This document shows, in pieces, positions 4,505 to 24,619 of a DNA stretch of 64,000 nt. Positions within the stretch are counted from its first letter, which is position 1, and the number at the start of each line of letters is the position of its first letter. A program made the position numbers and the translations under genes. The DNA comes from Candidatus Multivoradales bacterium (lineage in GTDB: Bacteria; Acidobacteriota; Thermoanaerobaculia; Multivoradales; JAHEKO01). The DNA is taken from contig CBDCVR010000015.1 of NCBI GenBank assembly GCA_965223155.1, positions 448,001 through 512,000 of the forward strand, in the 5' to 3' direction. The notes under the pieces were generated by a model. The model had not been told where the DNA came from, did not search any database, and worked only from the letters and a program-made list of their open reading frames with translations.

Positions 4505-6325
4505 TCAGTCGCCGGGCGCCAGATGCGCCCGATCCGAGTCGCCCATCTCGACCCCCGAGGGGAAGTACTCGCGCCAGCGGCGGGTGACCCGCTCGGCAAT
4601 CTCCTCGGCGCAGAAGAGCTCGTCCGGGAAGTCCGGCTTGCGCCGGGCGTCGATCAGGATCGGAGCCCGGTAGGCGACGTGGTTGCGCTCGATCGCGGTC
4701 GCGCGGGCGTAGACGTCGCGCGCGGGCTCGAACTTGGTGAACGTCGACCAGAGGAAGTTCATCGACGACGCCAGGGTGCGCTCGGGCTCATCGGTCAGGA
4801 CCAGGAGAGGCCAATCCGAGAAGGCCGCCGCGGCCACGATCCGCTCCGGCAGACCCGCATCGTCGGCGGCGCCGCCCACGACCAGGCAGCCGCGGCAGAA
4901 CGGCTCGGCGTGCGTCGCCCCCGCCGGCAGCTCGGCCGGAGCCAAGGCCGACGGCAGCTCGCGCACCGGGTCGCCCAAGCCCAGCCAGATGCCCTTCGAG
5001 CCCTCGTTGACCACCGGACCGGTGTAGTCCAGTGTATCCATCGCCAGATTGGCAAGGACGAACAGGTCGGTCTCGGTCCGCGTGCGCTCGAGCACGTGCT
5101 CCAGGGTCGTCCGAAAGTCGGTGAGATCCACCGGCCGATCGGTCACCAGCAGGAACTTGGTGAGGGACAGTTGACCCTCACCCAGAATGCGGAAGGCGCT
5201 GGCCATGGCCTCGCGCTTGTAGCGCTCCTGGACGACCGCGGCCGCCAGCGAGTGATAGCCGGTCTCCCCATACGACCACAGGCTCCGGACGCCCGGCATG
5301 ACCAACGGAAACAACGGCGACAGGAGCTCCTGGAGCAGATCGCCGATGTAGAAGTCCTCCTGCCTGGGCTTGCCCACCACTGTCGCCGGGTAGATGGCGC
5401 CGTCACGGTGCGCCAAGGCGTCGATCTCGAACACCGGGTAGTCGTGGCGCAGTGAATAGTAGCCGTAGTGATCCCCGAACGGTCCCTCGGGACGGCGCTC
5501 GCCCGGCGGCACCTTGCCGATCAGGGCGAACTCGGCTTCGGCCAGCAGAGGATGGGCCCCGGGGCCGGCACACAGCGGCAGCCGGCCGCCGGTCAAGAGC
5601 GAGGCCAGGAGCAACTCGGGCACGTTCTCCGGCAGCGGCGCGATCGCCGCCAGGATCGCGGCAGGCGGCCCGCCGAGAAAGACCGTCGCCGGCAGGGCTT
5701 GCCCGCGCTCTTCGGCCACCGCGTAGTGGTACCCGCCACCCTTGCCGATCTGCCAGTGCATGCCGGTGGTGCGCCGATCGTGGACGTGCAGCCGGTACAT
5801 CCCCAGGTTATGCCGCCGCCGCTCACCCTCCGCCGTGGCCGGCTCCTCGGTATAGACGAGGGGCAAGGTCACGAACGGCCCGCCGTCTTCCGGCCAGGTC
5901 GTCAGAACCGGCAGCCGGTCCAGGCGCACGTCGGTCGTGACATTGGCGGTCACCGGTCCGCGCGCACGCCGCTTGAGACCCACACGCGCGAGCTGTCCGA
6001 GAGCGCCACGCGCCTGCCACAGCCGCGCGGCGCTCGGCGGCAGCAAGGTCTCGGCCAGCTCCACCGCTTGCTGGAGGAGCTCGAAGGGGCGGCTGCCAAA
6101 GGCCATCTCCGCCCGAGACCGGGTGCCGAAGAAATTCGTGGCGCAGCGAAATCGGCTTCCCCGAACCTTGTTGAAAACCAGGGCCGGACCACCGGCGGCG
6201 ATAACGCGGCGATGGATCTCCGCGATCTCCTGATCGGCATCGACCTCGACGTCGATCTCGACCAGATCGCCACGGCGGCGAAGCTCCGCTAGAAAGCTGC
6301 CCAGGTTTGGGAAGGTGACCGCCAT
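4505..6325 (-). CDS. UbiD-family (prFMN-dependent) decarboxylase
   Basis: Start at MAVTFPNL (6325); EIAEIHRRV, NLGMYR, PEGPFGDHYGYY catalytic motif. Confidence 0.9.
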   Translation of the reverse strand: MAVTFPNLGSFLAELRRRGDLVEIDVEVDADQEIAEIHRRVIAAGGPALVFNKVRGSRFRCATNFFGTRSRAEMAFGSRPFELLQQAVELAETLLPPSAARLWQARGALGQLARVGLKRRARGPVTANVTTDVRLDRLPVLTTWPEDGGPFVTLPLVYTEEPATAEGERRRHNLGMYRLHVHDRRTTGMHWQIGKGGGYHYAVAEERGQALPATVFLGGPPAAILAAIAPLPENVPELLLASLLTGGRLPLCAGPGAHPLLAEAEFALIGKVPPGERRPEGPFGDHYGYYSLRHDYPVFEIDALAHRDGAIYPATVVGKPRQEDFYIGDLLQELLSPLFPLVMPGVRSLWSYGETGYHSLAAAVVQERYKREAMASAFRILGEGQLSLTKFLLVTDRPVDLTDFRTTLEHVLERTRTETDLFVLANLAMDTLDYTGPVVNEGSKGIWLGLGDPVRELPSALAPAELPAGATHAEPFCRGCLVVGGAADDAGLPERIVAAAAFSDWPLLVLTDEPERTLASSMNFLWSTFTKFEPARDVYARATAIERNHVAYRAPILIDARRKPDFPDELFCAEEIAERVTRRWREYFPSGVEMGDSDRAHLAPGD

Positions 6326-6333
6326 GGTGACGA

Positions 6334-7353
6334 CTAGCCGGCCGCGCGCTCGAGTACCGGACGTCCCTTCGCGATGCGCGAATGGATGTCGTGGTAGATG
6401 GCGAAGACCCGGGCGCGGGAGATCTTGGAGCCCGGCCCCTTGGCCTCGACCCGATCCAGCGTCGCCCAAGCCAGCTCCACCGGCAGGGCGGTAAAGGCGA
6501 TCACTCCGGGGGGTCCTCCCGCGGCCTGAATCGCCCGTGAATACTCGGCGGCCGAGCGAAGGTCGGCCCGGGCCAACGCGAACACCTCGTCCCGATCGAC
6601 CCCGGGCGGAAGGAAGTTTCGTCCCTCGTCGGCGTCCTCGACGCTGTCCTTGAGGATGTTGACGAGCTGTAGCCCCTCGCCGAACGCCGAGGCGCGCTCA
6701 CGCAGGTAGTCCGCGGCGGGCGTCAGCGCCTCGCTGCCCAGAAGAAACAAGTCCGTCAGCATCTCGCCCACGATCCCGGCAACCGCGTAGCAGTAGGCCC
6801 TCAGATCGTCCAGGTCCTCCAGGCGAAGGACGCCGCCGTCGTCGGTCTTGGTCACGAACTCGGCCATCAGACGCGTGGTCCGCCGGGTGTGCTTCCGGAT
6901 GGCCTCGGCCGCGGCCGGATCGAGGTCCAGCAGAGCTCCAAAAACCGCGGGAGTCTCCGTCAGCAACTCGAGATAGCCCGGATGCTCGGTCGGCGGCTCG
7001 GCAAGCCAGACCGCGACGCGGCTTTCGACTTCGCTCCGCGACGGCTCGGCCAGCAGGCGGTCGAACTCGTCCAGGGCCCGCAGGCGCTGCGGGCGGCGCC
7101 ACAACACGCTCGCGTCCTCGAAAGTGTCCGCGATCCGGAACAGCAGATAGGAGATCGTGACCTCGCCCCGCGTCGGGTCTGGCAACTGAGGGATGGCCAG
7201 CGCGAAGGTGCGGCTGGTCTTGACCAGGAGATCCTGGAGGCGCTCGCCCCGAGCGGTGGCAAAGAGCTCGACGGCTCGGTCTCCCCCGCTTCTTCCGTTT
7301 CCCCCGTTTCCCCTGTTTCCGAAACCTCCGGATGGTGTCGCGACGTCCTTCAT
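6334..7353 (-). CDS. Squalene synthase (single-enzyme, FDFT1-like head-to-head synthase)
   Basis: SRTFALAI, YLLFRIADTFED, YCYAVAGIVGEMLT, GLQLVNILKD; start uncertain (7353 chosen). Confidence 0.8.
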   Translation of the reverse strand: MKDVATPSGGFGNRGNGGNGRSGGDRAVELFATARGERLQDLLVKTSRTFALAIPQLPDPTRGEVTISYLLFRIADTFEDASVLWRRPQRLRALDEFDRLLAEPSRSEVESRVAVWLAEPPTEHPGYLELLTETPAVFGALLDLDPAAAEAIRKHTRRTTRLMAEFVTKTDDGGVLRLEDLDDLRAYCYAVAGIVGEMLTDLFLLGSEALTPAADYLRERASAFGEGLQLVNILKDSVEDADEGRNFLPPGVDRDEVFALARADLRSAAEYSRAIQAAGGPPGVIAFTALPVELAWATLDRVEAKGPGSKISRARVFAIYHDIHSRIAKGRPVLERAAG

Positions 7354-7390
7354 ACCCGACGCCGATCCTAGCCTGGATCGGCGCAAGCGC

Positions 7391-8272
7391 TCACCCGTCG
7401 CGGCCGTCCCGCGACCGGGTCGAGTCCAAGCCGGCCGGGACCCGAGTCGCCCCGGCTTCCGCGCCCGCTGTCGCCGCGACTCTCGCCGCTTCCTCTGGCT
7501 CCGCGCAGCCGGAGGCCTCGAGAGCCGCCACCGCGGCCGCCAGGGCTCCGGCGCGATCCCCGTTTCCGATCCATGAAGGCACGCCGAACCGACTCAGTTC
7601 GAGGGCAGTTTCCAGCCGCAGCCGCATGCCGCCGGTGACGTCGCCGGCCGAGCCCACCGCGGCCGCCCGGACCGCGTCCAGGTTCGCCGCCGTGACCCGA
7701 TCCACCGGCGCGCCGGCGCCGTCCAGAATGCCCTCCGACCGGCCCAGCCAGATCGCTCCGGCAACCCCATGCCCCCGAGCCAGCAACCCCGGCAGCAGCG
7801 ACCTCAGCACGGTCTCGGTCGAGACGATACGAGGCTCGCCTTCTTCGGTCAGCGCCACGTCACCGTAGAGAACCGGCAGGTGGCCCGCGTCCAAAGCCGC
7901 CGCCACGGTCACCGCGCCGGCTCCACCCGCGGCCGGGCCGGTCATGAAGCTGCCCGGCGCCAGCGAGAACGGCTCGAGACCGGCTTCCAGAAGCGCGGCG
8001 ACGACGACGCGATGGAGCCGCGCCGCCGCGTCCTGGGTTCGCGAGACCGCCGAGATCTGCTGCGGCCGGCTCCGGCCGTCCCAGCCCGACTCGAGGGCGG
8101 CCCGGTGGCCGAACGAACCGCTGCCATGACCTAGAACGAAGCGTGCGGACGCGCCGGCCAGCTCAACCGCGAGCCGGTCCACGACCTCCCGGCGCACGGC
8201 CTCGTTTCCGGCCTTGTCGGTAATCAGGCTCCCGCCCCACTTGACCAGGAAGACCGGCGGACGCGGGCTCAT
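7391..8272 (-). CDS. ipk: Isopentenyl phosphate kinase (amino-acid-kinase family)
   Basis: C-terminal part of ORF 7391..9589 from ATG 8272: KWGGSLITDK, GHGSGSFGH (IPK His), PVLYGDV, DVTGGM; overlaps upstream stop by 4 nt. Confidence 0.88.
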   Translation of the reverse strand: MSPRPPVFLVKWGGSLITDKAGNEAVRREVVDRLAVELAGASARFVLGHGSGSFGHRAALESGWDGRSRPQQISAVSRTQDAAARLHRVVVAALLEAGLEPFSLAPGSFMTGPAAGGAGAVTVAAALDAGHLPVLYGDVALTEEGEPRIVSTETVLRSLLPGLLARGHGVAGAIWLGRSEGILDGAGAPVDRVTAANLDAVRAAAVGSAGDVTGGMRLRLETALELSRFGVPSWIGNGDRAGALAAAVAALEASGCAEPEEAARVAATAGAEAGATRVPAGLDSTRSRDGRDG

Positions 8273-9306
8273 TGCCGCCCCTCCCGGCCGGGCTCGCCGT
8301 CGCGCTCCAGATGGCGCTCGCTTGCGCGCGGCCCGGTGCCCACCCGGTCGGCCAGCACCCGGACGACGCCGTCCAGCTCCGCAAGAGCGGCGCTCACCCG
8401 GACTTCGACGTCCGCCGGACAAAGAGCGTGGACGTTTGGCCCGGCATCGATCGTGGCGTAGACCGGGACGCCTTCCGCGCGCAGCTCGCGAATCCGCCAC
8501 AACACTTCGAGTGTGCCACCCTTCCAATAGTAGGTGGGCGGAGTCGAGGACATGGCAACGCGATGCAGATCCACCGCCTCGTCTTCGACCACCGCGCCCA
8601 GCTTCTGAATGTCGCGCTCGCGGATGGCTTCTTCGACGGCCCGGAGCCGATCCGGCAGCTCGGCCAGCCGCGGCTCGAACCTGGGACTGGTCGGCGCCCG
8701 CCGGTGGCCCTCGCGCGATGGCACGTCCTTGGCCGACTCGTCCACGATCGCGACCAAATCGCACAGAGCCCAATGATCGGCACCTGCCAGGACCTCGATA
8801 CCGTCGCCGCCGGCCGCCGCCGGCCAGCGCACGTAACCTCCAGCGACCGAGCGGGCCGCCGAGCCCGAACCGCTGAGCCGGGCCCAGCGGGACGCCTCGT
8901 TCAGATCCTCGGGCGGCGTTCCCAGAGCCTCGAGCGCCGCCAGGGTCAGGGCCGCGAACCCCGAGGCCGACGAGGCGATGCCGGCACCGGTCGGGAACGA
9001 GTTCTCGGTCAGGACCTCGAAGGAGCCGGCGCGGCCCGCCCGATCCCGCAGTCTGTTCAGATGGCGACGAACAGGGGCCACGAAACCCTCCGACGCCGGC
9101 TCGAAACCACCGCCCTCGCGCCGGAACCAGACCCGGTCCCGGCCGCCACCCCCGGGGTGGAAGGTCGCGGTACACGTCGAAACACAGCGGTCCAGGGTCA
9201 TCGAGATTGAAGGGTTGAACGGCTCGACGGTCTCGGCGTCGCGTGTGCCCCAGTACTTGATGAAGGCGATGTTCGACGGAGCGATGACGGTCGCTTGGGT
9301 AGGCAT
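8269..9306 (-). CDS. Mevalonate (mono/di)phosphate decarboxylase, probably mevalonate-5-phosphate decarboxylase
   Basis: SNIAFIKYWG, SISMTL, GIASSASGFAAL, SGSGSAARS, DAGPNVH; next to ipk, no phosphomevalonate kinase in cluster. Confidence 0.88.
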   Translation of the reverse strand: MPTQATVIAPSNIAFIKYWGTRDAETVEPFNPSISMTLDRCVSTCTATFHPGGGGRDRVWFRREGGGFEPASEGFVAPVRRHLNRLRDRAGRAGSFEVLTENSFPTGAGIASSASGFAALTLAALEALGTPPEDLNEASRWARLSGSGSAARSVAGGYVRWPAAAGGDGIEVLAGADHWALCDLVAIVDESAKDVPSREGHRRAPTSPRFEPRLAELPDRLRAVEEAIRERDIQKLGAVVEDEAVDLHRVAMSSTPPTYYWKGGTLEVLWRIRELRAEGVPVYATIDAGPNVHALCPADVEVRVSAALAELDGVVRVLADRVGTGPRASERHLERDGEPGREGRQ

Positions 9307-9309
9307 CGG

Positions 9310-10452
9310 TCAGGTTTCCCAGCGCAGTCCGGGGCCGCCGAAGCCGCCCGGCACGGGAACGGTACCAGCCGGAAGAAGAGAGTCGGGATCGGGAAGGTCC
9401 CGGTAGCGGGGCCGAAAGACGATCAACATGCCGGCCGCCGCGCCGCTCAGGGCGCCGGCGCCCGAGATCTTGGCCGCGGCACCGGCCGCCTCGATCTCGA
9501 CGATGGCACGGGCCACCGGCTCCGGCACCACTCCGATCCGCTCCAAACATCGCTCGAAGCGCTTGACCGCGTCGAGCAGGTCCGGCCACCGGGACTCGCC
9601 TGCGGCGAGCGCCTCGGCGGCGGCGAGCGTCGCCTCGCCCATCCGGTCAAGCAAGGCGTCGAATTCCGAATCCTGGTCCTTGCGTGCGCGTACAGCCGCC
9701 ACCACCTCCCCAGTGGTCTCCACCGGCGTTCCCGTGTTGAAAGCCGCCAGACAGCCGTCGAGCCAGGAGGGCACTTCGAGCCGGGTCGACACCTCGAGAT
9801 AACTCGCCTCAGAGGCTCCGGAGCCGCCGGTCTCCATCCGACCGGCCGAGGCAGCCCCGGGCCGAAAGAGCTGCCAGCCGCCCTTCAAGACCGTTCGATG
9901 ATCCACGCCCGACGGCGTGCCGTGCTGGCGGCGCTCGGCTTCCTCCGCGATCACGGCCACCAGGTCGGGGTCGGGCCGGCCATCGGTCGCCACCACGAAG
10001 GCTCCGGCTACCGCCACCGCGACCGAGGCCGAGCTTCCCAGGCCGGCACCCACCGGTAGCTCCGAGCCGAGGTGCACGTCAAGGGACGGCAGCTCGGCGG
10101 CGGGCCTCTCGGTCGCCTGGACCGACTCGGCTAGAACGATCTTGACCACGCTCGCCGGATCGGTCGTGCGCAAGGCCTCGAACCGCTCCGGGCTGGGATC
10201 GGCTCGGTACCGGCGCCAGCATTCACGCCGCTCGGCGCCGAAGCGCAAGATCTCGGCCCAGGCCACGGTTTCCTCGTGGCCGAAGGTCTCCAGGCAAAGC
10301 CGCACTGCAGCATCGGTCCCGCTCTTGTCCCCGCGCCTCGCGATCCGGCACCGGGTACGCAGATCCAGCGCCGCCACCAGGGCCGGCCGGCCGTAGACCG
10401 CCGCGTGCTCGCCCATCACGATGAGCTTGCCGGGTGCGCTGGCGACGGTCAT
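9310..10452 (-). CDS. mvk: Mevalonate kinase
   Basis: APGKLIVMGEHAAVYG, PVGAGLGSSA, HGTPSGVD, KISGAG GHMP motifs. Confidence 0.92.
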   Translation of the reverse strand: MTVASAPGKLIVMGEHAAVYGRPALVAALDLRTRCRIARRGDKSGTDAAVRLCLETFGHEETVAWAEILRFGAERRECWRRYRADPSPERFEALRTTDPASVVKIVLAESVQATERPAAELPSLDVHLGSELPVGAGLGSSASVAVAVAGAFVVATDGRPDPDLVAVIAEEAERRQHGTPSGVDHRTVLKGGWQLFRPGAASAGRMETGGSGASEASYLEVSTRLEVPSWLDGCLAAFNTGTPVETTGEVVAAVRARKDQDSEFDALLDRMGEATLAAAEALAAGESRWPDLLDAVKRFERCLERIGVVPEPVARAIVEIEAAGAAAKISGAGALSGAAAGMLIVFRPRYRDLPDPDSLLPAGTVPVPGGFGGPGLRWET

Positions 10453-10461
10453 CGCTGGCAG

Positions 10462-11733
10462 CTAGCGCTCGACGGAACCGCGCCCGAGCTCCTGATGGGC
10501 CCTCGCCAGATCTCGCGTGGTGAAGGCGGCCATCAGCGAGAGTTCGCCCGCCAGCACCGCGGCCCCGAGAATCTCGGCCAGACGCATCACCGCCTCGCCC
10601 GGACGTTTGGGCACGGCCGGGATGCCGAGCAGGTCCAGCGCCTCGCGCTGGGTATCGAGCGAGGTTCCGCCGCCGACGGCCCCCAGGGGCAAGTCGGGCA
10701 AGAACACCGACGCCCGCACCCCGTCCTCGCCGTGCGGCTCGATGCTGGTGACGCCCATGGCTCCTTCCACGACCTGCGCCGGATCCTGGCCGGTGGCGAT
10801 GAAGAAGGCGGCCAGCACATTGGCGAAGTGGGCGTTGAATCCCATCGACCCGGCGGCGATCGAGCCCATCAGGTTCTTCCGGTATTGCACCTCGCGCAGC
10901 GCGGCCGCCGTCGTCTTGAGCCGCTCCCGAAGCACTTCGGCTTCCAGAACCACGTCGGCGTGAACCCGCTTGCCCCGGCCCTCCAGGAAGTTGACCGCCG
11001 AGGGCTTCTTGTCGACGCAAAAATTTCCGGAGAGCGCAATGCACGGCAGGCCGGTCTCGGGCTCGATCAGATCCGAGACCACCCGATCGCAGGCCACCGT
11101 GGCCATGTTCATGCCCATGGCGTCGCCGCAGCGAAAGCGGAAGCGCAGATAGATCGACGAACCGATGACCTGCGGCCGCAGATCTTGGAGCTTCAGGAAG
11201 CGGCTGGTGCTCTCGGCTACCTCCCGAATCCGGTCTTCGTGCTCCGCCACCCAACTCAGGAATCCCTGGGTCGCGTCGAGCCCCTCGGAACGGAACACCG
11301 GTGCCCTCGTGATGCCCACGTCCTCGACGGCGACGGTCGCGCCGCCGGCATCGCGGATCGCACGGCAGCCGCGGTTGGCGCTTGCCAGGAGCGCGCCTTC
11401 GGTGGTCGCCATCGGCACGTAGATCGACTCCTCGGGCGAGACGAAGCGCCCGCGCACAGAGAGTGGGCCGATCACGCCGATCGGCACCTGCGCCGCCCCG
11501 ATGAAGTTCTCGCAATGGCGGGCCGCCGCGCGAGCCGCGTCCAGGCCGTAGCCGCCGGTAGCCTCGAGCGACGTTCCGGTCAGCCGCTCGAGCGCGGTGC
11601 GGCGGACCCAGGCAGCATCGTCGGGCTCGAGATCTCCCGGCAGCTCGTGGAGCCGGCGGGAGCCCTCCACCACCTCAGTGACCAGGGATTCCAAGTGTTC
11701 CGTTGCGCTCGCGCCAGCTCGCTTCCCAGCCAT
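10462..11733 (-). CDS. hmgA: HMG-CoA reductase, class I (NADPH-dependent)
   Basis: CENFIG, PMATTEGALLAS, DAMGMNM, SGNFCVDKKPSAVN, GQDPAQ, C-terminal catalytic His (RAHQ). Confidence 0.95.
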   Translation of the reverse strand: MAGKRAGASATEHLESLVTEVVEGSRRLHELPGDLEPDDAAWVRRTALERLTGTSLEATGGYGLDAARAAARHCENFIGAAQVPIGVIGPLSVRGRFVSPEESIYVPMATTEGALLASANRGCRAIRDAGGATVAVEDVGITRAPVFRSEGLDATQGFLSWVAEHEDRIREVAESTSRFLKLQDLRPQVIGSSIYLRFRFRCGDAMGMNMATVACDRVVSDLIEPETGLPCIALSGNFCVDKKPSAVNFLEGRGKRVHADVVLEAEVLRERLKTTAAALREVQYRKNLMGSIAAGSMGFNAHFANVLAAFFIATGQDPAQVVEGAMGVTSIEPHGEDGVRASVFLPDLPLGAVGGGTSLDTQREALDLLGIPAVPKRPGEAVMRLAEILGAAVLAGELSLMAAFTTRDLARAHQELGRGSVER

Positions 11734-12761: not shown

Positions 12762-13858
12762 TAGTCGCGGTCTCCGAGAAAATCGACCAGCGCCTCCAGA
12801 AAGGCCCGACCCTGAGCCTCCAGGGTCAACGCCACCAGAGCCTCGCGGGCGATGTCGAGCCGTTCGGCGACCATCATCTCCACCGCCAGCTTGGCGCCGC
12901 TCGAGGCCACGACGGCGCGCACGCGATCCAGCGTCTCGGCCGTCACCTCGGGGTCCCCGAGGGCCTCGAGCACCACCTGCCGTTCGGGCCCCGCTGTCCG
13001 TTCCAAAGTCTGCTGAATCAAGACCGTGTGTTTGCCCTCGGCGATGTCCGAGTCGACCGACTTGCCCACGGTCTCGCTGCTGCCAAAGACACCGAGCAGG
13101 TCGTCGCGGAGCTGGAAGGCCTCGCCCAAGACCCGCCCGTAGCGGGCCAGGCCCTGGCGGTTCTCCGGTGAAGCGCCCGCGGCCAGAACACCCAGCTCCA
13201 GCGGCCGCTCGACCGAGTAGCGGCCGGACTTGAGTCGCAGGATTTGAAGTAGGGCATCGCGATCGAGCGCGCCGCGAAACGGCGCCGTCATCTCCAGATA
13301 CTGTCCCAGCACCACTTCCTGGCACATCGCGGCGAAGGTGCGGCCGAGCTCGGGAACCGCAAAGGGCCGGGAACCCTCCAGAAAGAGCTCCACGGCGTAG
13401 GCGTGCGCCAGATCCCCAAGCAGAATCGCGACCGATTCGCCATGCCTGGCGGCGTCTCCCGGCCAGCCCCGATCCCGATGGTCCTGCTCGAAGGCCCGGT
13501 GAGCGGTGGGCTTGCCGCGCCGCACCTCGGCATCGTCCATGATGTCGTCGTGCATCAGCAAGTACGCTTGGAGGAGTTCGGTGGAAAGCGCCAGCGGCAG
13601 GATCGCCTCTTCGTCTTCGCCGCCGGTCGCCCGGTAGCCGAAAGAGACCAGCGCCGGTCGCAGTCGCTTGCCGCCCCGCCCCACGAATTCCCTGAGCCTC
13701 GAAGTCAGCTCCAGGACGTCTTGGTTGGACTCCGCCAGCGCCCTCTGCTCGCGCTCGGCGAGCCAGGCGTCAATCCGCTGGGTAGCCGTGTCCCGGAAGT
13801 CCGCCAGCAGGGGCTCCAGAGCGGGCGCTACGTTGGCCTTGAGGGTTGGGCTCGACAA
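12758..13858 (-). CDS. Short-chain polyprenyl diphosphate synthase (FPP/GGPP synthase)
   Basis: GGKRLRP, FARM HDDIMD..RRG with Tyr at -5, GQYLE, AFQLRDDLL. Confidence 0.92.
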   Translation of the reverse strand: MSSPTLKANVAPALEPLLADFRDTATQRIDAWLAEREQRALAESNQDVLELTSRLREFVGRGGKRLRPALVSFGYRATGGEDEEAILPLALSTELLQAYLLMHDDIMDDAEVRRGKPTAHRAFEQDHRDRGWPGDAARHGESVAILLGDLAHAYAVELFLEGSRPFAVPELGRTFAAMCQEVVLGQYLEMTAPFRGALDRDALLQILRLKSGRYSVERPLELGVLAAGASPENRQGLARYGRVLGEAFQLRDDLLGVFGSSETVGKSVDSDIAEGKHTVLIQQTLERTAGPERQVVLEALGDPEVTAETLDRVRAVVASSGAKLAVEMMVAERLDIAREALVALTLEAQGRAFLEALVDFLGDRDY

Positions 13859-13989
13859 GTCTCAGTCCTGGTTGCAATCCCCGGCGACGGTCTTCTTCGG
13901 AGACGGCCCGGTGCCGGGCTCACACCGGCAGGAACGCCGGACTGGCCGGCTCGACCCGGTCCGGATCCGTCCGATCCGCTGCGAACTCA

Positions 13990-15549
13990 TCATTTTATCT
14001 TCTGGCCGCTCTCTGGGCTCGGCGTGGATGGCGGCCCCAGTCCAGACCCCAGTCCAAGCCCGACCCCGGCCGTCGCCGAACCCGCCGCCAGGAACATCTC
14101 CGACAAGCGCACCGGCAGGCCTTCCGACGGTTGCCCTCTCGGGACAGCCAGGCCGGCTGGATCGGCCAGGACGGCCAGATCGGAAAGCAGAAAGCCGACC
14201 GAGGCCTCGCGCGATAGGGCCCCGTGCGTCCAGCGCAGGCGGCCGCCGGTCAGCCGCGCCGCCCGCTCGGTCGCGCGCGCGCCGTACATGTAGCCGGTCG
14301 CCGTCGAGCACACCACGGTCGCCGGATTCTCGACCCGCTCGAAGCTGGAGTGAATCCGCGCAAGGCCGTCCGGGAACGCCGCCGCGGTCGTCTCGCGGAG
14401 CCAGTCCCGGTCCGCGAACCAACCCGGACGCTCCAGGTCGTCCTTCGAGCCACCACGACCCAAGCGCTCGAGCACGACCCGGTAGCCCAGGGGGTCTCCG
14501 GCAACCGGCACGTAGGACCAGGCGGCCGCCGATTTCCGGATCGTGGCGAGACCGCCGCTGCTGACGACCCGCACCGCATCGTTCCCATCGTCCTTATCGT
14601 CCTCATCGTTGGCCGAGCGGTGAGCGCAGAGCTCTACGCCCTCAACCGAAGCCAGGATGGTCGCCAGCTTGGCGCCCAACTCGGGCGCCGAGTAGGCCTC
14701 GAAGCTCGAGACCAGGCCGTACGGAGTGAGCACGACGTCTCCGCGCGCCAGGCTCTCGCCGGCCCGGAGGCCGTGCTCCACGAAGGCGCGACGGACACCC
14801 GGCAGCACGTTGACCAGGGGCCGCCCCCCGGACATACCGTGATCCGAAAAGACAACAAATCGGAGCCGGCGGCCGCTGTCGCTCCGGGCCTTCGCGATCG
14901 CCCGCCCCAGCCGGATGAAGGTCTCGTCCAAGGACTCCGGACCCTTCAAGTGCGCCGCGGTGTCGGTGGTCTCGACGTACGCGAAGTAGCGCGGTTGGGT
15001 GGAGGCCACGAAGTCCCGCACGGCTCGCTCGACCCGGCGCTCGCTGGCCTTGACCGGCCTCAGGCTGGCCACGGCGCTCCGCGCCACGCCCTTCTTGCTC
15101 CAGTCGAAGAAGTCCCGCCAAGGAAACGCAATCTTGAAATAGCTGACCGGCCCGCCGCCCCGAGCCTTGCGCCGGCGCCAGTCGAAGAAGCGAGCCTCAT
15201 AACCCGGTGAGCGCTCGAGGCCCAGAGGTTCGAAGGCCGCCGCCAGGGCGACGCTGGTGGTCGAGGGAAAGGTGCTGACCAGCGGTCGGGGGCCGCCCAG
15301 CTCGGCAAAAAGCTCGGCGGCGACGCCACGCCGCTCGAGATCGACGACATACGAGTAGGGCACGGCGTCGAGGGTCAGGTACAGGACCGCGGGCGGAGCG
15401 GCGGGTTCCGGTCCGGGCGATCCGCGACCTTCGACCTCCGACGACGAGGCGGCTACCGCCATCCAGACCGAGACCAGGATGGCGATCGCGGCAACCCGGG
15501 TCCCGGCCAGCGCCCACGGTGGCCTCCCGTCTCGGATCGGCCGGATCAC
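13990..15549 (-). CDS. Exported alkaline phosphatase/nucleotide pyrophosphatase superfamily protein
   Basis: GTG at 15549 overlapping hpnG stop; hydrophobic leader; LTLDAVPY, STFPSTT, DTAAH, SDHGM, THG metal-binding motifs. Confidence 0.75.
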   Translation of the reverse strand: MIRPIRDGRPPWALAGTRVAAIAILVSVWMAVAASSSEVEGRGSPGPEPAAPPAVLYLTLDAVPYSYVVDLERRGVAAELFAELGGPRPLVSTFPSTTSVALAAAFEPLGLERSPGYEARFFDWRRRKARGGGPVSYFKIAFPWRDFFDWSKKGVARSAVASLRPVKASERRVERAVRDFVASTQPRYFAYVETTDTAAHLKGPESLDETFIRLGRAIAKARSDSGRRLRFVVFSDHGMSGGRPLVNVLPGVRRAFVEHGLRAGESLARGDVVLTPYGLVSSFEAYSAPELGAKLATILASVEGVELCAHRSANDEDDKDDGNDAVRVVSSGGLATIRKSAAAWSYVPVAGDPLGYRVVLERLGRGGSKDDLERPGWFADRDWLRETTAAAFPDGLARIHSSFERVENPATVVCSTATGYMYGARATERAARLTGGRLRWTHGALSREASVGFLLSDLAVLADPAGLAVPRGQPSEGLPVRLSEMFLAAGSATAGVGLGLGSGLGPPSTPSPESGQKIK

Positions 15550-16283
15550 GCCCAGACCTCGTCGATCGTGCGGGCCAGGCCCGCCATCAGGCCTCGAGCC
15601 CTCGCCCGGAACTCGACGAGAGCCGGCACGGTCCAGGGCCGGGCCAGAGCCGCCGCCAGTACCCGGCCACGCGAGAGCCGCCCCCGTCGATCGACCGCCC
15701 GGGCCACGGGTCCGGGCAGCGACTCGTCGAGTGTGTCGCTCACGACTCGGAGAACAACGTAGGGCACTTCCGCCCGATTCGCCAGAGCCGCCCAGCGACC
15801 GCTCTCCATGTCCACGACCGCTGTCTCGCCGGCACCGAATCTCGCTCCCAGCTCGCGCTTGTCGCGGGCGCGGGCGACGATCGTCGGAGAGGTCACGAAG
15901 ACCCCTTCGCGGGCACCGGCCGCCAGAAGCGCCTGCCGGCGCTCGGGCCGCGGATCCGCGAGCTCGTGGCCTCCGACTCGGGGCAGGGCGGCTCCCGCCA
16001 GGGCGGCGGCGAGGACCCGGTCGCCGGTGGCAAGATCGGGAGTCAGAGCACCGGCCAAGCCGGTGAAGAGCACTTCCGAAGCCGAGGCCAGCGCCCGATC
16101 CAGACCCTGGGGCGCGGCCGCGGCTCCCGCCCCGGCCCGCACCATGAGCACGCTTCCCCCGGGGCACTCGCCCCGCCAGGCCGGCAAGCCCTCGATCCGA
16201 GCCGGCCTCAGGCCCCAATGCCCGACCAACGGCCCGGCCTCCTCAGGAAGGGCACAGACCACAGCCAGGTCCGCCGAGCTCAT
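15546..16283 (-). CDS. hpnG: Hopanoid-associated nucleoside phosphorylase/nucleosidase HpnG-like
   Basis: GLAGAL, VDMES, VLRVVSD (PNP/MTAN fold); in hpnH-hpnA operon. Confidence 0.8.
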   Translation of the reverse strand: MSSADLAVVCALPEEAGPLVGHWGLRPARIEGLPAWRGECPGGSVLMVRAGAGAAAAPQGLDRALASASEVLFTGLAGALTPDLATGDRVLAAALAGAALPRVGGHELADPRPERRQALLAAGAREGVFVTSPTIVARARDKRELGARFGAGETAVVDMESGRWAALANRAEVPYVVLRVVSDTLDESLPGPVARAVDRRGRLSRGRVLAAALARPWTVPALVEFRARARGLMAGLARTIDEVWA

Positions 16284-17284
16284 CGCTGCCCCGCGCCGGC
16301 CGTGACGTAGCCGTTCTCACGAAACCAGGCTACCGCCCGCCCGAGCGCTTCCCGGACCGGCGTTTGCGGCAGGCCCAGCTCCCGCACCGCCTTGCCGGCG
16401 TCGAAGTACATCCTGTGCCGGGCCATGCGCGCGGCCTCCAGCGAGACCCGCGGCTCGCCGCCGAAGACCCGCGCGCGGGCAGTGTCGAGGGCGCCGGCGG
16501 CGATCGCCACCGCGTGAGGCAAGCGCAAGCTCGGCGCCCGCAAGCCGGTGAGCTCTTCCAGCCGTCCGAAGAGCTCGGCCAGGGACAGGTTCTCGTTGCC
16601 CAGAATGTACTTCTCTCCGATCTCGCCCCTCTCCGCCGCGAGCAGATGCCCGGCAGCCACGTCTCGAACGTCCACGAAGTTGAGTCCGGTATCCACATAG
16701 GCGGGAGTCTTCCGGTTCAAGAAGTCAAGAACAATCCTCCCGGTCGCGGTCGGCTTGAGGTCGCCCTCGCCCACCGGCGTCGAAGGGTTGACGATGACCA
16801 CGGGCAGACCGCGGCCGGCCAGCTCCTCGGCGACGCGCTCGGCCAGGAACTTCGAGCGTTTGTAATGGCCGATCATGTCCTGAAACCGTACCGGAGTCGT
16901 CTCGCGGGCGGGAGAGCCGTCGGCGTGGAGCCCGAGGGCCCCCACCGAGCTCGTGTACACCACCCGCGAGACCGAAGCGTCGAGGGCCGCTTCCAGGAGC
17001 CGGCGGGTACCTTCCACGTTCGCCCGGTAAATGGCCTCCGGACGCTGGGCGAAGAGCCGGTAGTCGGCGGCGCAGTGATAGACCTCATCGACCTCCGACA
17101 GCGCCGGCCGGTAGCCCTCCGGCCTGAGCAGGTCGCCGACCACGACCTGGGCGGCGCTCGCGCCCAAGTTGCGCCGGTCGCTCGAAGGACGCACCAGACA
17201 GGTCACGTCCCTGCCCGCGCGCTCGAGCGCGCGCAAGAGGTGGCCGCCCACGAACCCGGTGGCTCCGGTCAGGAAGGCCTTCAT
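16280..17284 (-). CDS. hpnA: Hopanoid-associated sugar epimerase HpnA
   Basis: TGATGFVG, HCAADYRL, YKRSK, NPSTPVGEGDLKPTATG. Confidence 0.92.
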   Translation of the reverse strand: MKAFLTGATGFVGGHLLRALERAGRDVTCLVRPSSDRRNLGASAAQVVVGDLLRPEGYRPALSEVDEVYHCAADYRLFAQRPEAIYRANVEGTRRLLEAALDASVSRVVYTSSVGALGLHADGSPARETTPVRFQDMIGHYKRSKFLAERVAEELAGRGLPVVIVNPSTPVGEGDLKPTATGRIVLDFLNRKTPAYVDTGLNFVDVRDVAAGHLLAAERGEIGEKYILGNENLSLAELFGRLEELTGLRAPSLRLPHAVAIAAGALDTARARVFGGEPRVSLEAARMARHRMYFDAGKAVRELGLPQTPVREALGRAVAWFRENGYVTAGAGQR

Positions 17285-17318
17285 CCGCCGGCGCTCGCCT
17301 TCGTCGAGACCTGCGGCC

Positions 17319-18320
17319 TCAGCCCAACAGGTTCCAGGCGGCCATGCGCACCAAGTCGGCCGGCCGCCGCTTGAGGTCCGTCACCACCGAGGCTTCGAAG
17401 CCCGAATGCATGGCGCAGTTCTGGCAAAGCCGGTCGCTTCGGGACTCCCAGTAGCTCCAATCGGTCCCATTCCAGAACTCGTCCCAACTGTCGTAGTACT
17501 GCTTGCCGATGAGATAGCACGGCCCCTTCCAGCCCAAAGGCGTGAAGGTCACCGTACTCCAAGGAGAGCAGTCATAGTCGCGCAGGCCGGCCGCGAACTC
17601 CAGAAACATGGGCGTTGAGTGCAAACGGTACTTCTTCGAGATCCCGAGCACCTTGCGGAACTTCTCCTGGATGTCCCGCCGGGTCATGAAGATGTCCCGA
17701 TCCACCGACTCGTATTGGTAGCCGGGCGAGATCAGCATGCCGTCGACGCCCATCGCCGCCAGCTTCGCGCACAGCTCTTCGACCTCTTCGATGTCGGTCT
17801 CCTTGAAGACGGTCGTGTTGGTGACGACGTGGTACCCGCGCTTCTTCGACTCCCGAATCATCTCGATCGCCTTGTCGAAGACCCCGTCCCGAGCGCAGAC
17901 GTAGTCGTGAGTCTCGCGCATGCCGTCCAGGTGGACGTTGATCGACAGGCGCTTGTGCGGAGGGACCAAGTCGAAGACCTTCTCATCCAGAAGCAGCGCG
18001 TTGGTGCACAGGTAGATGTGCCGTCGGCGCTCGATGATGCCAGCGAGCAACTCGGGTAGCTCCGGATAGATCGTGGGCTCGCCGCCACAAATCGAAACCG
18101 CCGGCGCCCCGCACAGATCGACCGCCTCGAGGCAGGTAGCCACCGGCAGGCGATCCTTGAGCTTGCCGGTGTGGCGCTCCGTGGCACAGCCCAGGCACGC
18201 CAGATTGCAGGTATAGAGAGGCTCGAGCATGAGCACGAACGGATAGCGGCTCGTGCCCCGCCAGGCCTGCTTGGCCTGATGCCGGACCATGTCGGTGGTG
18301 ATGTGGAGCGGGAAGCGCAC
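17319..18320 (-). CDS. hpnH: Adenosyl-hopene transferase HpnH (radical SAM)
   Basis: YPFVLMLEPLYTCNLACLGC, GGEP, CTNA, PCYL, CQNCAMHSGFE. Confidence 0.93.
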   Translation of the reverse strand: MRFPLHITTDMVRHQAKQAWRGTSRYPFVLMLEPLYTCNLACLGCATERHTGKLKDRLPVATCLEAVDLCGAPAVSICGGEPTIYPELPELLAGIIERRRHIYLCTNALLLDEKVFDLVPPHKRLSINVHLDGMRETHDYVCARDGVFDKAIEMIRESKKRGYHVVTNTTVFKETDIEEVEELCAKLAAMGVDGMLISPGYQYESVDRDIFMTRRDIQEKFRKVLGISKKYRLHSTPMFLEFAAGLRDYDCSPWSTVTFTPLGWKGPCYLIGKQYYDSWDEFWNGTDWSYWESRSDRLCQNCAMHSGFEASVVTDLKRRPADLVRMAAWNLLG

Positions 18321-18377
18321 GGGTCGGAGTTAGCGGGTCGGAGTTCGTGGATCAGAGCAATCGGTCAGGGTTGCCGG

Positions 18378-20468
18378 TCAGGACACTCCCGCGCCGGAGC
18401 GGTTCCCGGCCCGGTCCAGCCGGCGGAACTCCGCCAGCGCCTGCAGCGGAAAGTAGACGGGGTAGTTGTGGTACTTCAAGTAGAAGACCTTCGGAAATCC
18501 GGTTCCGGTCCAGGCCTCGTCGGTCCAGGTGCCGTCCGGGAGCTGCCGTTCGAGCAGGTAGGCGATGCCCAGCTCAATCTCGGACCCGCGGTGGCCGGCG
18601 GCCAGCAGGCCCAGGAGCGCCCACGCGGTCTGGCTGGGCGTGCTCGTCCCCCTGCCTTTGAGCTCCGGATCCTCGTACGAGGCAAGCGTCTCACCCCATC
18701 CCCCATCGGGGTTTTGCCGAGACCGGATCCAGTCACGGGCGGCCACACCCCAGGGCTCGGCCACCAGGTCCACGCCGGCCGCCGCCAGGCCGGTCAGCGC
18801 CAGCCAGGTGCCGTAGAGGTAGTTGCAGCCCCAACGGCCGTACCAGGAGCCGTCGGGTTCCTGCATCGAGCGCACGAACCCGATCGCCCGTTCCATCCTC
18901 GCCTCGCTCGAATCGGCGCCCAGCGCGGCCAGCGCCTCCAGAGCCCGGCCGGTGATATCGACCGTCGACGGATCAATCATGGCATTGTGATCTGCAAAGG
19001 GAATGTAGGTCAGGATTTCCCGGTCACAGCCCCGATCGAACGAGGCCCAGCCGCCGTCCCGGTTCTGCATCGAGACCAGCCAGGCCCTGCCCCGATCGAT
19101 CGCGGCGGCCACCCCGTCTCCGCGACTCGAAGGCGCCGTCAACGCTAACGCCTTGAGCACTTCGGCGGTGTCGTCGCAATCGGGATAGAACTCGTTGGCG
19201 TATTCGAAGTACCAGCCACCCACCGGACCCTTCGGGTTGTTGTTGCGCCAATCGCCCGGACGCCGCACTTCGCGCGCCAGGAGCCACTCGGCCGCCCGCT
19301 CCAGAGCCCGGACCTCCGGATCGCCGTCGCCACCCGCGGGCGTCGAGCTGGCGAGCGCCGTCATCGCCAGAGCCGTGTCCCAGACCGGCGACTTGCATGG
19401 TTGGACCCGAAGGGTCTCGTCGTCCTCTATCTCGAGCTTCTCGAGCTCGCGGATCTGGGCGGCCAGCACCGGATGGCCCTGCGCGTAGCCCAAGCTCTCG
19501 AGAGCGATGATGGTGTTGACGATCGGCGGGAAGATCGCCCCCAGGCCGTCGCTCGCCTCGAGCCGCTCCAAGATCCAGCGCTCGGCGGCCTCGACCGCGC
19601 CTTGGCGGAGCGGATGGAACGGGACCGCCTGATAGGCCTTGATGAACCGGTCGATGGTGGTGAACAAACGGCCCCAGGCACGAGAGCGAAAACCTCCCAA
19701 GGCCGGATGGCGGATCGCCGCGGGACCGGCATCCAGCTCGTCCAAGGTGACCGGAAGCTCGCGGCGTGGCTTCCGTGCCCAGATGATGCTGAGGGGCACC
19801 ACGATCGCGCGCGACCAGGACGACATCTCGTACAGGTTGCACGGGAACCATCCGGGCAAGAGCACTAGCTCGGGCGGAACCGCCGGAGCCGCGTCCCACC
19901 GGTACAGGCCAAAGATCGAAAGGTAGATCTTGGTGAAGGAGTTCGCCGCTTCGAGCCCCCCGCCGTCGAGGATCGCTTCGCGAGCGCGGGTCATCGGCTC
20001 GGCGGCGGGATCGTCACCCATGAGCTTGAGGACCAGGTAGGCCTTGATCGAAGCGCTGACGTCGGCGGGGCCGTCCGGATAGAGGCTCCAGCCGCCTTCG
20101 GGCCGTTGCGCCCGGCGCAACGCCTCCGCCGCCTTGCCGACCTTGGGATCCTCACCGCGTCCCAGATAGACCTTGGTCAGGACGTACTCCGACTCCAAGA
20201 TAGAGTCGCCTTCCAGCCTGGCGCACCAATGCCCGTCCGGTTGCTGCTGGTCCAGGAGCGCTTGGCGGGCGGCGGCGATTGCGCGGTCGATCCGCGTCCA
20301 GAGGGCGTCGGCAGGCGGGACTTCGGTGGGGCTCGGCGCCGGCGTCACCGGAGCCGCCGGTACCGCCGGAGCAGACGGTCCGATGGCCGCAGCGCCGGCG
20401 GTACCCGTAGTGCCAGTGGCGCCAGCCGGGCCAGCGAACGACTTGGGTGGGCGAGGAAATCGCGACAT
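18378..20468 (-). CDS. shc: Squalene-hopene cyclase
   Basis: DCDDTA (DxDD), multiple QW repeats (QQPDGHW, QNRDGGW, QEPDGSWYGRWG, QNPDGGWGE), TGTGFPKVFYL; start uncertain. Confidence 0.95.
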   Translation of the reverse strand: MSRFPRPPKSFAGPAGATGTTGTAGAAAIGPSAPAVPAAPVTPAPSPTEVPPADALWTRIDRAIAAARQALLDQQQPDGHWCARLEGDSILESEYVLTKVYLGRGEDPKVGKAAEALRRAQRPEGGWSLYPDGPADVSASIKAYLVLKLMGDDPAAEPMTRAREAILDGGGLEAANSFTKIYLSIFGLYRWDAAPAVPPELVLLPGWFPCNLYEMSSWSRAIVVPLSIIWARKPRRELPVTLDELDAGPAAIRHPALGGFRSRAWGRLFTTIDRFIKAYQAVPFHPLRQGAVEAAERWILERLEASDGLGAIFPPIVNTIIALESLGYAQGHPVLAAQIRELEKLEIEDDETLRVQPCKSPVWDTALAMTALASSTPAGGDGDPEVRALERAAEWLLAREVRRPGDWRNNNPKGPVGGWYFEYANEFYPDCDDTAEVLKALALTAPSSRGDGVAAAIDRGRAWLVSMQNRDGGWASFDRGCDREILTYIPFADHNAMIDPSTVDITGRALEALAALGADSSEARMERAIGFVRSMQEPDGSWYGRWGCNYLYGTWLALTGLAAAGVDLVAEPWGVAARDWIRSRQNPDGGWGETLASYEDPELKGRGTSTPSQTAWALLGLLAAGHRGSEIELGIAYLLERQLPDGTWTDEAWTGTGFPKVFYLKYHNYPVYFPLQALAEFRRLDRAGNRSGAGVS

Positions 20469-24569: not shown

Positions 24570-24619
24570 CGCCCTACGACACAAGACGCAGCGGCGGCGA
24601 GAAGGGTTCCATCGGCCGG

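Follow-up and report, generated by a model that had tools for sequence, protein, structure and literature searches.

A 13-gene run in an acidobacterial genome that probably joins a haloarchaea-type mevalonate route to squalene and hopanoid synthesis

Results

Organisation of the locus

We analysed a window of 64,000 nucleotides from a Candidatus Multivoradales bacterium (Acidobacteriota; Thermoanaerobaculia; assembly GCA_965223155.1, contig CBDCVR010000015.1, positions 448,001 to 512,000) and focused on a run of 13 consecutive minus-strand genes at 4505-20468, most of whose predicted products belong to hopanoid, mevalonate and squalene synthesis. An open reading frame (ORF) listing, Pfam and NCBIfam scans and a survey of start codons (Table 1) confirm the 13 co-oriented genes, from shc to ubiD, that an earlier interpretation made from the letters alone (hereafter the sequence-only reading) had described here. 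The five overlaps of 1-4 nt and the largest gap of 131 nt that it had counted are reproduced with the starts chosen in this work, several of which follow the longest ORF and are not proven (TTG for the isoprenyl diphosphate synthase (IDS) gene, idi2 and sqs; GTG for hpnH and the alkaline phosphatase superfamily (AP) gene).

The overlapping junctions are hpnA/hpnG, hpnG/AP, IDS/idi2 and mvd/ipk (4 nt each) and idi2/hmgR (1 nt); the remaining gaps, in gene order, are 57, 34, 131, 9, 3, 4 and 8 nt, the longest lying between the AP and IDS genes. At both hpnA/hpnG and mvd/ipk, the start of the second gene (ATGA) overlaps the stop of the first by 4 nt. All frames of the run are open, with third-position GC content (GC3) typical for coding sequence. 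Upstream, a 173-nt divergent intergenic region bounds the run: the following gene, which encodes a protein similar to BstC and TatT and falls outside the coordinates of the sequence-only reading, lies on the plus strand. A promoter and terminator scan of the run was uninformative (promoter-like sites, 0 against 0.8 expected; terminator-like sites, 8 against 7.9 expected), and an Rfam scan of 3000-25000 returned no family reaching its gathering score.

Table 1. Genes of the run and its surroundings (window coordinates)
Feature	Position	Strand	Basis or remark
shc, squalene-hopene cyclase (SHC)	18378-20468	-	696 aa; second ATG at 20480
hpnH, radical-SAM adenosylhopane synthase	17319-18320	-	TIGR03470
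hpnA, hopanoid-associated short-chain dehydrogenase/reductase (SDR)/sugar epimerase	16280-17284	-	TIGR03466
hpnG-like nucleoside phosphorylase/hydrolase	15546-16283	-	PF01048 and position
AP gene, exported phosphodiesterase or phosphatase similar to nucleotide pyrophosphatases/phosphodiesterases (NPP-like)	13990-15549	-	519 aa; PF01663
IDS gene, short-chain (E)-prenyl diphosphate synthase, probably farnesyl diphosphate (FPP) synthase	12758-13858	-	PF00348
idi2 (fni), type 2 isopentenyl diphosphate (IPP) isomerase	11733-12761	-	TIGR02151
hmgR, class I NADPH HMG-CoA reductase	10462-11733	-	TIGR00533, PF00368
mvk, mevalonate kinase	9310-10452	-	TIGR00549 best match, below cut-off; position
mvd, MVD-like decarboxylase, read as phosphomevalonate decarboxylase (PMD)	8269-9306	-	PDB match, residues
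ipk, isopentenyl phosphate kinase (IPK)	7391-8272	-	NF040647 below cut-off; PDB matches, motifs
sqs, single-enzyme squalene synthase (SQS)	6334-7386	-	PF00494; alternative ATG at 7353
ubiD-family decarboxylase	4505-6325	-	606 aa; TIGR00148
BstC/TatT-like periplasmic helical-repeat protein, divergent from shc	20642-21520	+	292 aa, signal peptide
Flavin-reductase-like gene	3541-4032	-	
Pyridoxal phosphate (PLP) enzyme	21523-22506	+	
Extracytoplasmic function (ECF) sigma factor, zf-HC2 anti-sigma factor, LiaF-like membrane protein	22517-24584	-	

The mevalonate genes and the source of IPP

Two of the mevalonate genes pass their family models: idi2 (TIGR02151, 374 bits against a cut-off of 281) and hmgR (TIGR00533, 442.8 bits against 441.8; PF00368, 390 bits). 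For mvk, the best NCBIfam match is TIGR00549 at 133.3 bits, below the cut-off of 163, and its place between hmgR and the decarboxylase gene is conserved across the examined loci. The decarboxylase finds its best PDB match in 6n0x/6n0y (229 bits, compared with 157 bits for the best diphosphomevalonate decarboxylase, DMD), and 6n0x is the PMD of Anaerolinea thermophila (PMC9254496). In the alignments, Thr occupies the position of DMD Lys21, a residue listed in Table 4 of PMC3857490, and His occupies that of a DMD Met. Chain 6n0z differs from 6n0x at just these two positions and would appear to be the specificity-switch variant mentioned in PMC9254496. At the level of sequence, the decarboxylase therefore appears to have monophosphate (PMD) character. 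The product of ipk reaches 102 bits with NF040647, below the cut-off of 120; its best PDB matches are IPKs, and it keeps KWGGS, GSFGH (residue 52, the signature histidine) and DVTGG, the invariant IPK motifs being those listed in PMC3857490. Wherever the pair occurs in the examined loci, ipk adjoins the decarboxylase gene.

We then considered the genome as a whole, a 4.0 Mb draft of 15 contigs that is 98.66% complete. The sequence-only reading had proposed a search for genes of the methylerythritol phosphate (MEP) pathway. Dxr (TIGR00243), IspG (TIGR00612) and IspH (TIGR00216) gave no match genome-wide, each control being positive in 9 of 14 reference genomes; the absence extends to an IspE-like kinase, while Dxs, IspD and IspF were not searched. 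There are four GHMP-kinase genes in the genome (a galactokinase, a sugar-kinase-like gene, mvk and the MVD-like gene), none of which fits, and hence no IspE and no phosphomevalonate kinase (PMK) of the GHMP type. TIGR01220 likewise found no PMK genome-wide, and the animal-type PMK family PF04275 gave no match genome-wide either, a blank of little weight because its control was positive nowhere.

Taken together, the PMD-like residues and best PDB match of the decarboxylase, the IPK motifs and the lack of a PMK point to the haloarchaea-type branch, made up of Mvk, PMD and IPK. This agrees with the 'archaeal-style' mevalonate route of the sequence-only reading, the decarboxylase/IPK pair being haloarchaea-type by PDB match, residues and motifs. 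Since Dxr, IspG, IspH, an IspE-like kinase and a PMK are all missing, IPP must derive from mevalonate through this branch, and the mevalonate genes of the cluster are the only route to IPP that can be recognised from the gene content of this genome.

A classical pathway would instead require the decarboxylase to be a true DMD, with an unrecognised kinase supplying mevalonate diphosphate and IPK only salvaging isopentenyl phosphate. The NCBIfam models lean in that direction, the decarboxylase scoring 194 bits with the DMD model (cut-off 171) and 124 bits with the PMD model NF040704, whose cut-off of 475 is far from being reached. In addition, a GHMP kinase of unclear role is encoded at C15:579954, and the positions of Ser139, Ser141 and Ser192 in the decarboxylase are DMD-like, those of Ser139 and Ser192 resembling both classes and so not discriminating between them. 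Nevertheless, we judge the classical pathway improbable: among solved structures, a proven PMD is by far the closest relative of the decarboxylase, the DMD lysine for the second phosphate is Thr here and the Met is His as in PMD, and the PMK searches came back blank (with the caveat on PF04275 given above). The ipk gene is, moreover, translationally coupled to the decarboxylase gene and stands beside it in all examined loci with the pair, and the odd GHMP kinase adjoins a peptidoglycan endopeptidase and resembles sugar kinases.

The haloarchaea-type route is not wholly contained in the run. The gene for HMG-CoA synthase stands by itself among unrelated neighbours, about 53 kb away from the cluster and beyond the window, and no thiolase gene lies within the 13-gene run. 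The run therefore begins at HMG-CoA, and the 'self-contained' module of the sequence-only reading has to be given up.

Prenyl synthase, squalene and hopanoid genes

The prenyl synthase matches PF00348 with 178 bits, and its best NCBIfam match is the mycobacterial FPP/geranyl diphosphate (GPP) synthase model at 218 bits, below cut-off. It carries a DDIMD motif with a Tyr five residues ahead, which we take to be a chain-length marker. The squalene synthase matches PF00494 with 124 bits and TIGR01559, its best NCBIfam match, with 89.9 bits, far below the cut-off of 287; in the PDB it is closest to squalene synthases (46 bits, against 28-31 bits for phytoene and dehydrosqualene synthases), and both Asp-rich motifs (DTFED and DSVED) are present. 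No other gene of the genome matches SQS_PSY strongly, the second match reaching 26 bits (21 bits to HpnD); HpnE was not searched. These data support the suggestion, implicit in the sequence-only reading, that a single-enzyme SQS would replace HpnCDE for squalene.

The hopanoid genes themselves are mostly assigned with good scores. SHC reaches 645 bits with TIGR01507 (cut-off 431), matches both SQHop_cyclase Pfam domains and has a DCDDTA (DxDD) motif at residue 430; HpnH reaches 372.8 bits with TIGR03470 (cut-off 225), has CxxxCxxC at residue 38 and is 69-80% identical to its relatives; and HpnA reaches 444 bits with TIGR03466 (cut-off 368). The hpnG-like product matches PF01048 (PNP_UDP_1) with 81.5 bits, and its best NCBIfam match is HpnG (TIGR03468, 101.6 bits, below the cut-off of 187). 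It is only 30-40% identical to its relatives, and its assignment as HpnG rests mainly on position.

From these genes we infer hopanoid production. The cyclase and side-chain genes might alternatively yield some other triterpenoid or be silent, in which case they would have no bearing on biomarkers; the sub-cut-off score of hpnG would fit this, as would the report, in the accessible text of PMC5462960, that neither bacteriohopanepolyols (BHPs) nor C30 hopenes were detected in the tested subdivision 23 strains. Against it, SHC and HpnH pass equivalog cut-offs with their catalytic motifs intact, the frames are open with coding-type GC3, and identities of 52-80% across genera indicate purifying selection, so that we regard a locus without hopanoids as very improbable.

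Conservation across the class and the phylum

Using the AP-like protein as bait, we recovered 22 loci, eight of which hold the cluster, in records titled as Thermoanaerobaculia or Acidobacteriota metagenome-assembled genomes (MAGs). Genomes and loci are cited below by our own G and L numbers. The order shc-hpnH-hpnA-hpnG-AP-IDS-idi2-hmgR-mvk-mvd-ipk-sqs and its strand are kept completely in L005, L006, L007, L009 and L014, whereas in L008, L010 and L011 the shc-to-sqs cluster is cut by contig ends; L028 (G010) duplicates L007 and was counted once. Across these loci identities range from 30% (hpnG) to 78% (hpnH), and the same shc-to-sqs order is found in G121 and G015. The synteny comparison called for by the sequence-only reading thus came out positive, the order recurring in at least eight other genomes.

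This recurrence in independent assemblies excludes a misassembly in practice. The genome is admittedly a draft of 15 contigs, but at least eight other assemblies from other projects show the same order, and the AP-IDS junction is bridged by the two longest of the short contigs obtained from four public DNA runs (6665 nt, 9250-15914; 4427 nt, 11348-15774), which possibly come from the source sample itself; no RNA run containing the locus was listed among the public runs. We therefore attach a negligible probability to an artefactual arrangement.

Within the class we sampled 151 genomes, 37 from the same order and 114 from the rest of the class; these tallies include the unpublished genomes G004, G104 and G135, on which no other result rests. 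HMGR was found in all 37 genomes of the order and in 28 of the remaining 114 (three of these being weak partial matches only), SHC in 25/37 and 24/114, and Dxr in 25/37 and 106/114. Six genomes of the order (G000, G015, G065, G089, G093 and G113) have SHC and HMGR without Dxr. The full cluster occurs together with Dxr in G010, G121 and G151-G154, the last four of which hold L005, L006, L011 and L014, and a general tie between the cluster and MEP loss consequently fails. The proposal of the sequence-only reading that hopanoids come from a mevalonate route thus stands for the present genome at the level of gene content, but the link between cluster and MEP loss does not hold in general. In family f12 of the class (G074:C9, G150:C35 and others), frames of about 750-850 aa give weak partial HMG-CoA reductase matches, and in G074 and G150 these lie within about 10 kb of shc.

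A search for IPK in 401 genomes of the phylum identified a homologue in 34: 17/18 for the same order, 0/21 for the other families of the class, and 17 in five families of other classes. Ten loci from other classes were fetched. The series idi2-hmgR-mvk-mvd-ipk-sqs is complete in eight of the ten, and shc-hpnH(-hpnA)-hpnG stands directly upstream of the mevalonate core in three (G242, G415 and G307). The locus of G493, cut by a contig end, runs mvd-ipk-sqs and then an AP gene, and that of G194 lacks a mevalonate-squalene module. G415 has a Dxr match; G242, G307, G192 and G493 have none. With the core complete in 8/10 loci and hopanoid genes in 3/10, the constant core is a mevalonate-to-squalene module, and its fusion to hopanoid genes is frequent but not universal. 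Within the order, too, the arrangement varies: the hopanoid and mevalonate halves are fused without the AP and IDS genes in G093, G037 and G089, and lie far apart in G065 and G113. G065 has two sqs copies (L034 and L035), about 1.9 Mb apart on one contig, one after shc-hpnH-hpnA and the other after the mevalonate genes.

These data also bear on whether the run is a functional unit at all, or whether a hopanoid block, a mevalonate-squalene block and a menaquinone gene, each with its own promoter and without co-regulation, are adjacent by historical accident. The distance between the two blocks in G065 and G113 speaks for such independence, as do the mevalonate-sqs core lacking shc in 5/10 other-class loci, the position of the largest gap (131 nt) exactly between the blocks, and the late, genus-level addition of ubiD. 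On the other hand, several families and classes show the fusion, gene order and strand being unchanged, spacing within the blocks consists of 1-4 nt overlaps or gaps below 60 nt, the triterpenoid-specific sqs travels with the mevalonate genes in 8/10 other-class loci, and no promoter-like or convincing terminator-like site was found at the junctions, albeit by a weak scan. We consider independent units unlikely. The run is probably co-transcribed as one or two operons, the first from shc to the NPP-like gene and the second from the IDS gene to sqs or ubiD.

Proposed pathway

The identities, order, tight spacing and conservation of the genes, together with the absence of PMK and of the MEP genes searched, make it highly probable that the locus represents a conserved acidobacterial supercluster, in which a haloarchaea-type mevalonate pathway is joined to the synthesis of FPP, squalene and C35 hopanoids. 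In this scheme, in which the specificities of the enzymes are those predicted from their genes, the separate HMG-CoA synthase encoded elsewhere on the contig would make HMG-CoA, which the class I HmgR would reduce to mevalonate, and Mvk would convert mevalonate into mevalonate 5-phosphate. The MVD-like enzyme, acting as a PMD, would then yield isopentenyl phosphate, IPK would phosphorylate this to IPP, and Idi2 would equilibrate IPP with dimethylallyl diphosphate (DMAPP). The prenyl synthase would supply FPP and a single SQS enzyme squalene, from which SHC would form hopene; HpnH would add the adenosyl side chain and HpnG remove adenine. As the genome lacks a recognisable MEP pathway, a mevalonate origin is to be expected for its hopanoids as well as for its menaquinone and carrier lipids. 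Two further products, the exported NPP-like enzyme and the BstC/TatT-like protein encoded divergently, are putative accessory proteins of the envelope.

Several points weigh against this scheme. At the third position of Table 4 in PMC3857490 (Ile27 in DMD, Arg or Thr in PMD) the decarboxylase has Val, with a Thr one residue earlier, to which the serine positions discussed above may be added. The products of mvk, ipk, sqs and hpnG fall below NCBIfam curated cut-offs, and their names come from best matches, motifs and position. The genome is a 15-contig draft, and Dxs, IspD and IspF lay outside the searches. The 131-nt gap and the separate halves in G065 and G113 argue that the halves can be separate units. 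Because relatives with the cluster keep Dxr, the cluster alone is no proof of mevalonate-derived hopanoids outside MEP-less genomes. Finally, the scheme is built on genes, not on RNA or lipids.

The UbiD-family decarboxylase

The last gene of the run appears to stand outside the conserved hopanoid block. Its product scores 281 bits with TIGR00148 (cut-off 245) and 445 bits with the menaquinone biosynthesis decarboxylase model TIGR03701 (below the cut-off of 496), and its best PDB match is E. coli UbiD (213 bits, the next family reaching 85 bits). The UbiD models end at about residue 444, leaving a C-terminal stretch of about 160 residues (window 4505-5000) without a Pfam match; this stretch is conserved, the alignments with the homologues in G015 (71% identity) and G053 (58% identity) covering residues 7-604 and 3-604, respectively. 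The gene is single-copy in the genome, which also has two MqnA/MqnD-family genes and one UbiX.

Among the relatives, ubiD comes after sqs in the same-genus genome G015 alone (71% identity); in G053, which belongs to a sister genus, it lies about 2 kb from ipk with no sqs at that place, and the gene after sqs in the other cluster-bearing loci is unrelated to ubiD. Given that this is the sole UbiD, that its best matches are of the quinone type, that MqnA/MqnD and UbiX are present and that the linkage is confined to two genera, we regard ubiD as a late-joining menaquinone gene, probably for the decarboxylase of the futalosine route. The sequence-only reading had counted it within the hopanoid module, from which it must be removed, since it resembles quinone-type decarboxylases and its linkage does not extend beyond this genus and one sister genus. 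We also considered the archaeal anhydromevalonate phosphate decarboxylase as a role for this protein; it was ruled out by the matches to E. coli UbiD and the menaquinone model, by its being the sole UbiD and by the futalosine route, and also because the pathway already has a PMD for that step.

Downstream of ubiD, at a distance of about 470 nt, lies a flavin-reductase-like gene; its distance from ubiD is the same in G015 (L032), and in G053 (L052) it is about 5 kb off. A connection with UbiD's flavin cofactor is possible.

Two exported candidate partners

The product of the AP gene matches PF01663 with 23.7 bits (cut-off 23) and has an N-terminal hydrophobic helix with arginines ahead of it, as do its orthologues in the cluster. 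D61, D196, H200, D236, H237 and H442 are invariant in 13 sequences, and we take them to be bimetal ligands, as in NPP enzymes. The best Foldseek matches of the predicted structure are Xac NPP, ENPP6 and phosphonoacetate hydrolase, with template modelling (TM) scores of only 0.40/0.52, and the matches include the lipid-directed ENPP6 and ENPP7, again with modest scores. By modelled fold and metal-site residues, the protein would therefore fall in the NPP branch. A phosphatase was once proposed to act after HpnG. The NPP-like enzyme is disfavoured for that role, as it carries an export or anchor helix of a kind absent from HpnH and HpnG.

Remote homologues of the NPP-like protein in Pyrinomonadaceae (27-31% identity) lack a signal peptide and keep unrelated gene company. 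Three of their loci (L016, L020 and L025, from Pyrinomonadaceae MAGs) share a conserved trio of PALP, repeat protein and NPP-like genes that is unrelated to hopanoid genes. A link between these loci and the window through PALP, tetratricopeptide repeat (TPR) and AP genes was considered and put down to coincidence, the TPR proteins being unrelated and the PALP proteins 27% identical.

The protein encoded divergently from shc has BstC as its only NCBIfam match (E 4.4e-9; 36 bits against a cut-off of 350) and BstC (7t1s) as its best natural PDB sequence match. Its AF2 model (pLDDT 86.6) finds as top Foldseek matches the TPAT transporter 8g52 (TM 0.68/0.71), BstC 7t1s (0.58/0.72) and TatT 3u64 (0.60/0.64), the TM scores to these three spanning 0.57-0.72. 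On the strength of this model we file the protein with the fold family of BstC and TatT, not as BstC itself. In nine genomes, orthologues with 42-59% identity are encoded ahead of shc in divergent orientation, and the cluster of every one of the nine contains the AP gene; none was found upstream of the six AP-less clusters for which 1.5 kb or more of upstream sequence is available (L029, L030, L031, L034, L037 and L045). By analogy with BstC, the protein is put forward purely as a candidate for carrying hopanoids or handling them in the envelope.

Discussion

Relation to known systems

A locus of this kind has been noted in print once, for the subdivision-22 acidobacterial MAG 'Mor1' (Sinninghe Damste et al. 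2017, Front Microbiol 8:968, PMC5462960), so that the type of locus is already known. Table S1 of that report lists idi type II, hmgcR, mvK and mvD, along with shc, hpnH and an SQS-like gene in place of hpnCDE, and its authors suggest tentatively that the organism may make BHPs 'in a rather different way'. Supplementary file 1 lists the decarboxylase as a diphosphate decarboxylase and, as kinases, ispE and mvK, hence no IPK among the genes listed there; the Mor1 genome paper, in its accessible text, speaks just of 'one terpene biosynthetic pathway' (PMC5006271). The present cluster resembles Mor1 in its mevalonate genes, shc, hpnH and the SQS-like gene instead of hpnCDE. It differs in its additional genes, namely hpnA, the hpnG-like gene, the NPP-like gene and that of a probable FPP synthase, Mor1 moreover being a single MAG of another class. 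The spread of the cluster, its co-existence with the MEP pathway and the NPP-like, BstC-like and UbiD genes lie beyond the coverage of the 2017 report as far as its accessible text goes.

The haloarchaea-type pathway of Chloroflexi and haloarchaea is described by Dellas et al. 2013 (PMC3857490), Aoki et al. 2022 (PMC9254496) and Hoshino and Gaucher 2018 (PMC6107057). As judged from the accessible parts of these papers, it shares with the present locus Mvk (predicted here), an MVD homologue (here closest to the Anaerolinea PMD), IPK with the signature histidine and the lack of PMK; what differs is that the genes here belong to Acidobacteriota, are tightly clustered, include a class I HMG-CoA reductase and are tied to sqs and shc. 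The canonical hpn loci of Proteobacteria and of subdivision 1/3 Acidobacteria, given in PMC5462960 as hpnC-hpnD-hpnE-shc, ispA-shc-hpnH and hpnA-hpnG, likewise have shc beside hpnH, hpnA beside hpnG (an hpnG-like gene here) and a prenyl synthase in the locus. After hpnG, the Zn-dependent alcohol dehydrogenase 'ug1' listed in their case (Table S1, PMC5462960) is replaced here by the NPP-like enzyme. The present locus also departs from theirs, as described in that source, in probably using one SQS instead of HpnCDE and in holding the precursor supply, from idi2 to ipk, within the locus.

In Streptomyces, mevalonate gene clusters stand beside terpenoid antibiotic clusters and use the classical PMK/DMD route for secondary metabolites. 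The present cluster is similar in being a clustered second supply of IPP joined to one class of terpenoids, next to which the MEP pathway may stay (G010, G121, G151-G154); it is different in its PMD and IPK, in a membrane lipid as the expected product and in being the sole supply in the present genome. PMC13001223 introduces the topic of dual pathways with the genus Streptomyces.

BstC, part of BstABC in Methylococcus capsulatus, binds sterols and is encoded next to sterol synthesis genes (Zhai et al. 2024, PMC10942540). The BstC-like protein resembles BstC and Treponema TatT in being, as modelled, a secreted all-helical TPR-like protein and, like bstC, its gene sits beside triterpenoid genes, here that of the cyclase. 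The sequence similarity to BstC is weak (36 bits against 350), a hopanoid would take the place of the sterol as putative ligand, and next to 20642-21520 we saw no gene resembling BstA or BstB.

Our literature searches, which left subscription journals and figures outside their range, returned nothing joining Thermoanaerobaculia and mevalonate; those for Acidobacteria and isopentenyl phosphate kinase returned matches off this pathway, judged by titles and abstract starts; and those for hopanoid and mevalonate returned nothing beyond the subdivision-22 MAG report, the one shc match being a eukaryotic sterol phylogenomics study. Relative to the searchable papers, what is new is the PMD/IPK nature of the route and its spread. 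This work also adds a phylum-wide mevalonate-squalene core, the co-existence of cluster and MEP pathway in close relatives, the demotion of ubiD and two candidate envelope partners.

Implications

A 2018 survey, in the text accessible to us, names Chloroflexi as the only bacterial phylum with the PMD/IPK branch (PMC6107057); relative to that survey, the present locus would make Acidobacteriota the second bacterial phylum with this 'archaeal' branch. As bacterial biomarkers, hopanes rank among those in widest use, and the interpretation of their carbon and hydrogen isotope ratios is framed around producers with the MEP pathway. In a phylum widespread in soils and sediments, the hopanoids of some lineages, if made, must be mevalonate-derived and those of others may be, and mevalonate-derived hopanoids would give a different isotopic offset from biomass. 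Relatives that have both pathways, and whose mevalonate genes are coupled to sqs and shc, make it possible to test in nature whether bacteria reserve one precursor pathway for one lipid class, and the BstC-like neighbour provides a concrete candidate for a hopanoid carrier.

We regard as possible, though on balance doubtful, a broader picture in which Acidobacteriota have a long-standing, dedicated line from haloarchaea-type mevalonate through squalene to hopanoids, often parallel to the MEP pathway, which some lineages, including the present one, have lost, and in which, where the locus has its fuller form, the NPP-like and BstC/TatT-like proteins make up a hitherto undescribed envelope module that processes or carries hopanoids. 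With the mevalonate line parallel to MEP, triterpenoid carbon would be channelled apart from other isoprenoids.

Other genes near the locus

Upstream of the locus and on the same strand as the cluster are genes for an ECF sigma factor, a zf-HC2 anti-sigma factor and a LiaF-like membrane protein, for which no counterpart was found in any of the fetched relative loci. The PLP enzyme encoded directly after the BstC-like gene reaches 453.5 bits with the threo-3-hydroxy-L-aspartate ammonia-lyase model (cut-off 452) and is matched, among the fetched loci, in the same-genus locus L033 only.

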